Shown: in pieces, positions 7,974 through 19,890 of the stretch | How the letters are laid out: each line of letters starts with the position of its first letter | How positions within the stretch are numbered: the stretch's first letter is position 1 | Source: a virus | Taxonomy: Duplodnaviria > Caudoviricetes | Virus record (IMG/VR): IMGVR_UViG_3300007643_000013 | Location: 1-24,095 of that record | Direction: 5' to 3' (one strand) | Length of the DNA stretch: 24,095 nt | The notes under the pieces: generated by a model | The model's database searches: none | Told to the model about the DNA's origin: nothing | The model's input: the letters and a program-made list of their open reading frames with translations, nothing else | Made by a program: the position numbers and the translations under genes

Positions 7974-8001
7974 CCCGCGCGGCCGCCGCGCGGGCGTTTT
8001 T
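7974..8001 (+). terminator. Intrinsic terminator after the major capsid gene
   Basis: CCCGCGCGG-ccg-CCGCGCGGG followed by CGTTTTT. Confidence 0.75.
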
Positions 8002-8038: not shown

Positions 8039-8596
8039 ATGAAACGCACCACCATCATCAACACCACGATGCTCGCCGCCTGCTTTGTCATGTTCGCGCT
8101 GGCTTTCGTGCTGGTTAACTTCTTCGCCGCGCCGCTGTCCCTGATCGCCGCCTGGTCGGCCTTCGGCCTGCTGGGCGCCGGCATGACGCTGGCCATTAAA
8201 GACGATGACCCGTCGCTAAAAAAAACGGTGGCGCTGCCCGCCAGCGACACGACCGTCGCCTCCGCCGGAATCGATCTCGGCCACGGCGGCAATGGTGACT
8301 TCGCCGCCCGGGCTGAACTACTGGTGTCCGCCCCCGCGCTGGCGGTGGGAGAACTGGCGAACGCCTCGACCATGATCTACGACGTGTACCACGATACCGC
8401 CAGCGACTTCGGCAGCGAGGCCCTGCTGCATAGTGCGGTCATCACGCAGACCGGAGCCGGCGGCGCGGGAGCCGGCGCGGCCGAAAAACGGGTAGCGCTG
8501 CCGGTCGACGTCCACCGCTACATCCGGGTCAAAGCGACCAACAGCGTCGACGCCGACGCCAGCGCCAAGAGCCTGACCGCTCAGCTGGTGTTTTAG
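8039..8596 (+). CDS. Bbp16-like capsid cement/decoration protein with N-terminal hydrophobic (2 TM) extension
   Basis: SAGIDLG...VYHDTASDF...LP..VHRYIRV jelly-roll-like pattern after the MCP; residues about 11-52 hydrophobic; alternative start ATG 8183. Confidence 0.7.
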   Translation: MKRTTIINTTMLAACFVMFALAFVLVNFFAAPLSLIAAWSAFGLLGAGMTLAIKDDDPSLKKTVALPASDTTVASAGIDLGHGGNGDFAARAELLVSAPALAVGELANASTMIYDVYHDTASDFGSEALLHSAVITQTGAGGAGAGAAEKRVALPVDVHRYIRVKATNSVDADASAKSLTAQLVF

Positions 8597-8680: not shown

Positions 8681-9325
8681 ATGCAAATCGACTTTATTGA
8701 GAAGATCAAGGCCCGCCGGCCCGCCTGCCTGCAGCCGTTCACCGCCGCGGCGCCGGTGCACATTCCGCTGGCCCGCGCTGAGCGGGAGATCCGGCCGGGC
8801 TGGGTCGCCCAGTTCCGCGGCCGCAGTTACATCAGCCGGCTGATTGCAGCGGCCACCGGCGGCGTGCACAGCCACAGCGCGATGCTGGCGCCGGGCCCGC
8901 ACGGGACCGACGTGCTGGAAGTGCGGGAAATGATCGGCGGCCGCACCATCCGGCTGGCGGACTACGTCGCGCAGGGCGAAGTGATCGACCTGTTCCGCAT
9001 CGACCTCAACCGCTGGCCGGAATACGACGGCGAAGCGGCGGTCGCACGGGCGCGGTGCTTTGTCGCCCGCACAAACTACAACTACGCGCAGGTCCTACGG
9101 CTGATGCTGCGGAAGATCCCGCTGGTGTGGCGGCTGTACGCAAACTCCACCGACGATGAGGCGACGATCGGCAACGTCGCCGCCCATTGCAGCCATGCGG
9201 TCGCTGACTGGTGCCGGACCGGCGGCGGCGTCGATCCTGTTCCGCGGCTGCCGGACCATTTTGTTGATCCGGCGCACATCACCCGTTCGCTGCTGTTTGA
9301 TTACTACGGCACGATCCAGGCTTGA
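8681..9325 (+). CDS. Permuted papain-like amidase (YiiX/YaeF, C92-like)
   Basis: FRGRSYISRLI..ATGGVHSHSAM (His first), YNY, HCSHAVA (Cys last), VDPAHI. Confidence 0.8.
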   Translation: MQIDFIEKIKARRPACLQPFTAAAPVHIPLARAEREIRPGWVAQFRGRSYISRLIAAATGGVHSHSAMLAPGPHGTDVLEVREMIGGRTIRLADYVAQGEVIDLFRIDLNRWPEYDGEAAVARARCFVARTNYNYAQVLRLMLRKIPLVWRLYANSTDDEATIGNVAAHCSHAVADWCRTGGGVDPVPRLPDHFVDPAHITRSLLFDYYGTIQA

Positions 9326-9329
9326 AACC

Positions 9330-9935
9330 ATGAAACCCGCCCTGCTTATCGTCGAAGACTCCCGCGACCACGCCGAACTGGCGGTTGCGGTGCTGCGCGA
9401 GGCGGCAGGCGACGAGCTGAAGATCGTCTGCGCCGCCTCTCTCCACCAGGCGCAGGCCGAATGCCTCCGCACGGCGTTCGACGCAATCGTGCTGGATCTT
9501 GGCCTGCCGGGCAGCACCGGCCTGGAAACGCTACGGCGGCTGCGGAAAATCTGCACCGCGCCGCTGGTGGTGCTAAGCGGCGCCGTCAATCACTCGGGCC
9601 GCGTACAGGCGATCCTCGCCGGCGCCTGCACCGCCATCAGTAAAGACGATCTGGAAGCACTGCCCAGGGCGGTCGCCAACGCCATCCAGCAGGGCGCCGC
9701 GGGCCGCGAAGACCGCCGCGTCTGGGACGCCAAGCTGGACACCGTCTGCGGAGTACTTGAGCAGGTGCAGGCCGACGTGGCCGTAATCCGCCTGTCACTT
9801 TTTACCGGCCGCTCGGGCCCCGGGCTCCTGGACCGCGCCGCCCATAACACCCGGCTGGCCTGGCTGGCCGTCGTCTGCTCGCTGACCGGGTGGGCCGCCT
9901 GGGTGATCGCCGCCTACACCGGCAACAACCAGTAA
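9330..9935 (+). CDS. Receiver (REC) domain fused to coiled coil and C-terminal TM helix
   Basis: Start ATG 9330 (MKPALLIVED); E9-D10, D56 in VLDLGLP, S83, K105; ends GPGLLDR...LAWLAVVCSLTGWAAWVIAAY. Confidence 0.85.
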   Translation: MKPALLIVEDSRDHAELAVAVLREAAGDELKIVCAASLHQAQAECLRTAFDAIVLDLGLPGSTGLETLRRLRKICTAPLVVLSGAVNHSGRVQAILAGACTAISKDDLEALPRAVANAIQQGAAGREDRRVWDAKLDTVCGVLEQVQADVAVIRLSLFTGRSGPGLLDRAAHNTRLAWLAVVCSLTGWAAWVIAAYTGNNQ

Positions 9936-19471: not shown

Positions 19472-19500
19472 TGCTCCCACCGCGAAAAAGGAATTTCACC

Positions 19501-19890
19501 ATGCAGACACGATCCGCGTTATTAGTTGCCCTGGTTGCCGCCCTGCTGCTGCTCCCTGGCCTGGCCGCCGGGGATGAACGGGCCGAGTGCGAACGCCTGG
19601 CGCCGAAGTATCAGGCCGAGACGGAGGTGCGGTTGTGGGACGCCACCCGCGTCGACCTGCTCACTCCCACACACGCGATTGAAGTCGACTGGTGCAGGAA
19701 GTGGCCCGAGGCGATCGGGCAGGCGCTGTACTACGCGCTGGTCACCGGCAAGCGGCCCGGCGTGCTGCTGCTGATCTCCGACGCCCGCGCCGAAGCCCGC
19801 TACGTACACCGCTGTCAGGCCGTCTGCGCCAGACACAGCATCGACCTGTTTATCGAGAAGGTCCAGCCCACCCCGGCGCCGCCGGAATGA
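19501..19890 (+). CDS. Signal-peptide protein with PD-(D/E)XK-like fold
   Basis: AAGGA RBS; MQTRSALLVALVAALLLLPGLAAG signal; E..L.D.TRVD...AIEVD...EAIGQALYY. Confidence 0.75.
   Translation: MQTRSALLVALVAALLLLPGLAAGDERAECERLAPKYQAETEVRLWDATRVDLLTPTHAIEVDWCRKWPEAIGQALYYALVTGKRPGVLLLISDARAEARYVHRCQAVCARHSIDLFIEKVQPTPAPPE

Follow-up and report, generated by a model that had tools for sequence, protein, structure and literature searches.

A phage receiver domain fused to a coil and a C-terminal membrane helix: a candidate phosphorylation-tuned holin-like protein

Introduction

What would a tailed phage do with a two-component receiver domain that ends in a membrane anchor? The question is posed by a gene at 9330..9935 on the plus strand of a viral record, the 201-residue product of which (P0001) joins a receiver to a coil and a hydrophobic helix. 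The window, that is the whole stretch of 24,095 nucleotides analyzed here, is the entire linear IMG/VR virus record IMGVR_UViG_3300007643_000013, a fragment about 70% complete. It contains a lambda-like late region with terminase (1352), portal (4220), major capsid (7001), head-tail joining (9996), tape measure (13000) and tail fibre genes. The reading preferred here, tentatively and a little short of even confidence, is that the fusion is a phosphorylation-tuned, tail-anchored holin-like lysis protein, either a holin subunit or a lysis regulator.

Architecture and distribution of the fusion

P0001 comprises a receiver domain (9330..9686, +), recognized by Pfam, alignment and a structural model, a coil of around 40 residues, a turn with the sequence TGRSGPGLLDR (residues 159–169; 9804..9836, +) and a predicted membrane helix (residues 176–194; 9855..9911, +). 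This helix, the only hydrophobic one in the protein (mean Kyte-Doolittle value 1.86), would be a tail anchor of probable N-in topology. The whole tail measures around 80 residues and, searched alone, has no match in Pfam or PHROG. It had been described in the first-pass annotation as about 75 residues of coil, a GPGLLDR motif and a terminal hydrophobic helix; the motif (residues 163–169) and the helix are indeed present, but the coil before the motif is only about 40 residues long.

The same annotation had allowed that the fusion might be a one-off. This is countered by P0002, a second full-length fusion from another data set, which has 199 residues, the same architecture and 56% overall identity. 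Identity is 71/119 in the receiver, 4/15 in the linker, 17/24 in the coil and 12/21 in the membrane helix, which indicates that both halves are under constraint. The fusion is thus real and rare, but not unique. The existence of P0002 also rules out an alternative-frame or frameshift artefact.

A search with the tail left two proteins among 104 candidates, P0001 itself and P0002, and the same search of 1.84 billion representatives returned, besides P0002, only two repeat-rich false matches. Of 552 receiver matches, the best 120 were inspected, and a hydrophobic C-terminal helix terminates these two proteins and none of the 118 others. The earlier suggestion to look for homologs of the tail devoid of a receiver led to no close one in the searches run, be it among shorter proteins or in scans of viral, metagenome and GTDB contigs, while 401 genomes of the phylum of genome G001 gave a single spurious match. 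The ESM Atlas offered no usable match for the tail (best value 0.75).

The receiver domain

Residues 6–114 of P0001 match the Pfam family Response_reg (PF00072) with an E-value of 1.3e-13 and a score of 51.5 bits, where the curated cut-off is 30.2. The first-pass claim that all phospho-acceptor residues are present holds: when 120 receivers are aligned, E9 and D10 (9354–9359), D56 (9495–9497), S83 (9576–9578) and K105 (9642–9644, all +) fall in columns conserved in the 118 other receivers and are kept in both fusions. The available text of PMC12632262 defines a true receiver by five active-site residues (DD, D, T/S and K), and by this definition the domain of P0001 is, as judged from its sequence, a true receiver.

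Two positions around the lysine, not remarked on in the first-pass annotation, depart from the usual pattern. At K-3, where the aromatic switch residue normally sits, P0001 has Ala102 (9633–9635, +) and P0002 also has Ala, while 114 of the 118 homologs have Tyr or Phe. According to the same partial source, this aromatic residue, which takes part in Y-T coupling, is found in 86% of true receivers and absent from 14%, and membership without it is possible (PMC12632262). Since not all true receivers are aromatic at K-3, Ala102 is unusual but not disqualifying. The K+1 position is Asp or Glu in the two fusions (Asp in P0001) rather than Pro. The cis Lys-Pro bond has been described as positioning the lysine within the active site (PMC9981736).

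The nearest receiver homologs are bacterial proteins of the LDLGLPDSxGLETL type, in which helix 5 runs on into the coils of kinases or GGDEF proteins. In a quick tree, the two fusions group together (support 99) on a long branch beside this group and apart from the receivers of Alteromonas phages. The matches in BFVD concern the receiver part of P0001. The arrangement of receiver, helix and output known from bacterial REC-GGDEF and REC-kinase proteins is shared by P0001, as its helix 5 is also predicted to continue into a coil, but their output is enzymatic, while P0001 has a coil, a turn and a membrane helix in its place.

The departures around the lysine bear on a reading in which the receiver is a phosphorylation-independent cap or protein-binding domain, in effect a built-in antiholin, of a holin-like protein whose role in lysis is real but which reads no phosphate signal. 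The long branch leading to the two phage receivers (1.48), the loss of both the K-3 aromatic and the K+1 proline, and the role described for the Lys-Pro bond would agree with it. Nevertheless, the five catalytic residues that make a true receiver in PMC12632262, as far as that text is available, are kept in both copies, and K+1 is often not proline in the nearest bacterial subfamily either (Pro in only 52 of 118). Such a cap is regarded as rather unlikely.

Predicted structure

The structure of P0001 was modeled with AlphaFold2 from 38 receiver sequences, with just two alignment rows spanning the tail. The mean pLDDT is 89.6, with values of 85–98 in the receiver and 73–89 in the tail apart from the last residue; with two sequences as the only input, the fold reached no more than pLDDT 49. 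The model contains five strands and five helices in the receiver, which corresponds to the (βα)5 fold. Receiver helix 5 and the coil are predicted to form one unbroken helix of 54 residues (105–158; 9642..9803, +), followed by a turn (159–165) and a second helix (166–198) that contains the membrane segment. The tail thus has the layout of XhlA-type proteins, a coil with a single C-terminal membrane helix.

Genomic context

The gene directly upstream of the fusion (8681..9325, +) encodes a permuted papain-like enzyme of the YiiX/YaeF, or Peptidase_C92-like, type (phrog_1128, E-value 1.6e-7), whose structure match reaches the bar set for PF05708. Its stop codon lies 4 nt before the start of the fusion. 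This C92 enzyme is a candidate enzyme of the cell envelope and could be a non-standard endolysin or a lipid or lipoprotein amidase. Its look-alikes in the Atlas are mostly viral.

These two genes are bordered on the left by a conserved post-capsid gene with no family match (8039..8596, +) and on the right by the head-tail joining gene (PF25138; 9996..10370, +). In the six closest relatives with the post-capsid gene (L003–L008) the head-tail joining gene directly follows the post-capsid gene, so that 8681–9935 represents a two-gene insert made of the C92 enzyme and the fusion. Its codon-position GC equals that of the neighboring genes, so that by this measure it would not count as recently acquired foreign DNA. 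Neither a promoter-like site nor an above-chance terminator was found around it, and no receivers were found in 39 loci collected by their capsid genes. A terminator-like hairpin is located at 7974–7994 (+), between the major capsid and post-capsid genes.

The post-capsid gene begins with an in-frame leader of 48 residues (8039–8182, +), which contains two hydrophobic stretches (Kyte-Doolittle values 2.53 and 1.81), is missing from the L003–L008 orthologs and has no Pfam or PHROG match. It may act as a two-helix partner in the membrane or as a leader for export. The last late gene (19498–19890, +) has no Pfam match and encodes an N-terminal hydrophobic helix followed by a domain that we take, by eye, to resemble a PD-(D/E)xK nuclease.

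In line with the first-pass annotation, no kinase domain was found among the 38 window ORFs scanned against Pfam (21 + 17 entries, some overlapping). No recognized endolysin was found in this approximately 70% complete record either. Among the capsid relatives in GTDB, 5/7 loci lie in Planctomycete records, the best two being 66% identical and located in Phycisphaerae MAGs, and on this sequence evidence the host is likely to be a Planctomycete.

In 5 of 18 gene-listed related loci, a small gene encoding a coil and a membrane segment directly follows the head-tail joining gene, and the other 13 have no such gene. The five loci correspond to four distinct phages (L003 = L262, L004, L010 and L012). 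In these relatives the small membrane gene comes after the head-tail joining gene, while the fusion comes before it.

A stand-alone family with a similar tail

The turn of P0001 resembles the G-N-G-x-P-G-L-x-x-R turn of small stand-alone phage proteins, in which a coil precedes and a membrane helix follows. This family, unnamed and without a Pfam model of its own, was assembled from viral contigs with a motif chosen by the analysts (GNGxPGLxxR). Small proteins with coil, G.G.PG turn, coil and membrane helix made up 92 of 120 matches to a first pattern and 53 of 91 matches to a second, and the pooled family contains 156 proteins (51 at <50% identity), with some contigs present twice.

Non-redundant loci with long flanks numbered 42, and in 39 of them (150/162 ORFs) gene neighborhoods were inspected by crude ORF calling and Pfam. 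A peptidoglycan hydrolase is encoded within two ORFs of the family gene in 10 of the 39 loci, and hydrolases account for 9/78 adjacent ORFs versus 1/72 second neighbors (Fisher p 0.018); the other 29 loci have no recognizable hydrolase nearby. XhlA (PF10779) is matched by 2/33 family members and a PHROG holin by 1/33 (1.8e-9). No receiver was found near stand-alone members at the loci examined. Of the 401 genomes from the G001 phylum, 14 were matched by the family profile, and the loci examined in them contained no receiver. In 4/39 loci (L064, L177, L220 and L234) the gene immediately upstream encodes DUF1353, and in L220 a lysozyme gene also lies downstream, which hints at a place for DUF1353 in lysis clusters.

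In five of the 39 loci, the family gene directly follows a head-tail joining gene, with no recognized hydrolase nearby. The profile, applied without motif selection, also found the member in L012, a capsid-related phage, next to the head-tail joining gene. Several Planctomycete-type phages (L012:3435-4043, L035, L046, L088, L231 and L242) encode G-N-G-x-P-G membrane proteins directly after this gene, and no recognized endolysin was seen near them.

These five loci, together with the position of the fusion (9330-9935) among head-completion genes, would fit a reading in which the tail family is non-lytic in Planctomycete-type phages, serving as an assembly scaffold, in superinfection exclusion or as another membrane accessory, with the receiver regulating that function. 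The adjacency to endolysins in other loci and the matches to XhlA and holin profiles point the other way, and most related phages make virions without such a gene. This explanation is regarded as improbable.

Kinship of the P0001 tail to the family

The core of the turn, P-G-L-x-x-R between two helices, is present in both fusions (PGLLDR and PGLINR), while the N-G of the family motif is replaced. The turn itself varies among other family members, and P0001 has a turn one residue longer in common with the members from L041, L063 and L078. The L-E that follows the arginine in the family, mostly forced by the search patterns, is not matched, the fusions having N-T and T-T.

Profile comparisons gave mixed results. 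Alignment of the P0001 tail with the family by hhalign gave 82%, and none of 100 part-shuffles reached as high. With the motif masked, P0001 scores above most of 208 control frames, many of them probably spurious, and is equaled by four: two motif-variant family members and the slot genes of L263 and L010. By hmmsearch with the family profile, however, P0001 reached only 2.6 bits, a value attained by 63 of 1000 part-shuffles. An ungapped register test failed, with 4464 of 5000 shuffles scoring as high, and with one inserted residue allowed the score of P0001 was reached by 878 of 10000. The pinholin gp63 of phage N4 scores 24.6 to the family on its membrane helix alone, versus 20.1 for P0001. 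Of the 14 matches to a pattern copied from the spacing in the window, one, L162, belongs to the family. Taken as sequence evidence, homology of the tail to the stand-alone family is plausible but only moderately supported.

The first-pass description of the tail as holin-like, and specifically XhlA-like, gains from the look-alike family beside endolysins, from the XhlA and holin matches of some of its members and from the layout of N4 gp63. It fares worse by direct profile comparison, as the tail of P0001 has no XhlA (PF10779) match at E 0.1 or 0.01 and no PHROG holin match, and its family score does not exceed that of N4 gp63.

The family also bears on the possibility of two products from one gene, in which an internal GTG codon (V146) would initiate a 56-residue holin without receiver, the full-length fusion being its antiholin. 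A weak possible start exists at 9750..9767 (+), with GGAG 11 nt before the in-frame GTG at 9765. Of the 217 internal ATG/GTG codons counted in 18 genes of the window, just 8 are preceded by such a motif, and V146 is kept in P0002; yet around 0.12 such sites are expected by chance per 80 codons, the GGAG-GTG spacing is long, and the product would be without most of the N-terminal coil of the family. A dual start is regarded as improbable.

Relation to known lysis proteins and to receivers of cultured phages

XhlA of Bacillus PBSX and gp24.1 of SPP1 (PF10779) are small holin subunits with one predicted C-terminal membrane helix, which need a two-helix partner, according to the available text of PMC6316719 and PMC6834076. 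P0001 shares the single C-terminal helix, but neither protein has a receiver domain. XhlA acts together with a two-helix holin, while the window has no clear XhlB-type partner gene; the neighbors that come into question are the C92 enzyme, whose action on peptidoglycan would be putative, and the two-helix leader on the post-capsid gene.

N4 gp63 is an experimentally tested pinholin with a cytoplasmic coil or helix and one C-terminal anchor in N-in orientation, and the mutations that alter its lysis timing cluster in the cytoplasmic stretch preceding the anchor (PMC12642591, in the parts available). It has a proline-containing turn at a place similar to that of P0001, but only the membrane helices of the two proteins align, and the “Receiver domain” of gp63 is, in that text, the name of a short cytoplasmic stretch and not a CheY-type domain. 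T4 holin T and its antiholin RI, as summarized in the same partial source, constitute a signal-controlled single-helix holin, which is what is proposed for P0001. In T4 lysis inhibition, however, periplasmic DNA is read by a separate antiholin, and not through cytoplasmic aspartyl phosphorylation.

Receivers also occur in lysis-type clusters of cultured Alteromonas phages. The order in phage V22 is a C92 amidase, a coil protein, a receiver (ORF30), an Rz-like spanin and a two-helix membrane protein; the amidase belongs to the same PHROG as the C92 enzyme of the window and lies two genes upstream of the receiver. In phage R9Y1, overlapping genes encode a membrane-coil protein, a receiver (ORF12) and a GH108 lysozyme. 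Both receivers have a long helix 5. Unlike the fusions, they are stand-alone proteins without a fused membrane helix, retain the Tyr and the Lys-Pro and are placed elsewhere in the quick tree. The V22 cluster (L261:4960-8236) around the CheY-like gene is unannotated and also contains DUF5675; in the available text of PMC7289586 the receiver appears only as an auxiliary signaling gene. In phage R8W, g48 is called PhoB, with the holin g46 nearby (PMC8228385, in part). The Stenotrophomonas siphovirus Bhz63 encodes a PhoP-like regulator and then a kinase-like protein behind its tail genes (L297:2989-4535).

The recurrence of receivers in lysis clusters of cultured phages argues against a non-lytic role as a membrane-tethered phosphate sink or decoy, in which a borrowed anchor would hold the receiver near host membrane kinases and drain or jam a two-component pathway. 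Retention of the catalytic residues with loss of the aromatic switch in both fusions would be expected of a domain used for its chemistry rather than for allosteric output, and the fusion gene is an optional insert. On the other hand, conservation in the coil (17/24) equals or exceeds that in the receiver (71/119), beyond what a bare anchor needs, and the 14% of true receivers that also lack the K-3 aromatic in the available part of PMC12632262 weaken the argument from its loss. The sink is regarded as unlikely.

Proposed function

A phosphorylation-tuned, tail-anchored lysis protein is suggested by the single-anchor subunits XhlA and gp24.1 together with the regulation of N4 gp63 through its cytoplasmic stretch. 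Phosphorylation of receivers on aspartate by a kinase or a small donor is established chemistry. In the proposed mechanism, D56 of the cytoplasmic receiver would be phosphorylated by a host kinase or a small phosphodonor, and the phosphorylation state would be relayed through the single helix, predicted to be rigid, into the coil and the membrane helix. A shift of the coil could then change assembly in the membrane, where the tail may oligomerize and permeabilize, and so move the time of lysis. As to direction, the phosphorylated or receiver-capped form might be the one that restrains lysis. Each of these steps, including phosphorylation in vivo, is inferred.

In favor of this proposal are the catalytic residues kept in both fusions, the gene's position right after a papain-like amidase within an insert among the late genes, the continuous helix 105–158 predicted by the model, the endolysin neighborhood of the look-alike family, and the V22 and R9Y1 receivers in lysis-type clusters. 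Simple gating is opposed by the loss of the K-3 aromatic and the K+1 proline and by a window with no kinase or proven endolysin. The lysis reading is opposed by the lack of a holin profile match, by the 29/39 family loci without a hydrolase and by the 13/18 related loci without a small membrane gene. Gating by phosphorylation, as a presumed input, is weakened in particular by the missing aromatic switch residue, which both fusions have lost.

Implications

A search of the full-text literature, covering mainly the main text of openly accessible articles, turned up neither a fusion of receiver and holin nor a holin gated by phosphorylation. Among single-anchor holin-like proteins the fusion is a real and rare variant, for which a signaling input is plausible. 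A broader view, in which the trigger of a phage holin is wired into host two-component signaling, with aspartyl phosphorylation turning the rigid helix to set the lysis time, and in which phage lysis genes have acquired phosphorelay domains several times independently, is doubtful.

The stand-alone proteins, encoded by environmental phages of the Planctomycete type and others, make up a large unnamed family and are candidate holins, and the Alteromonas phages with stand-alone receivers in lysis clusters provide a cultured genetic system. Regulated lysis in T4 and N4 reads superinfection. If the proposal is true, this phage would read the phosphorelay state of its host to time its exit, and, as far as sequence and model indicate, a host signal would likely tune the burst time of the infected cell.
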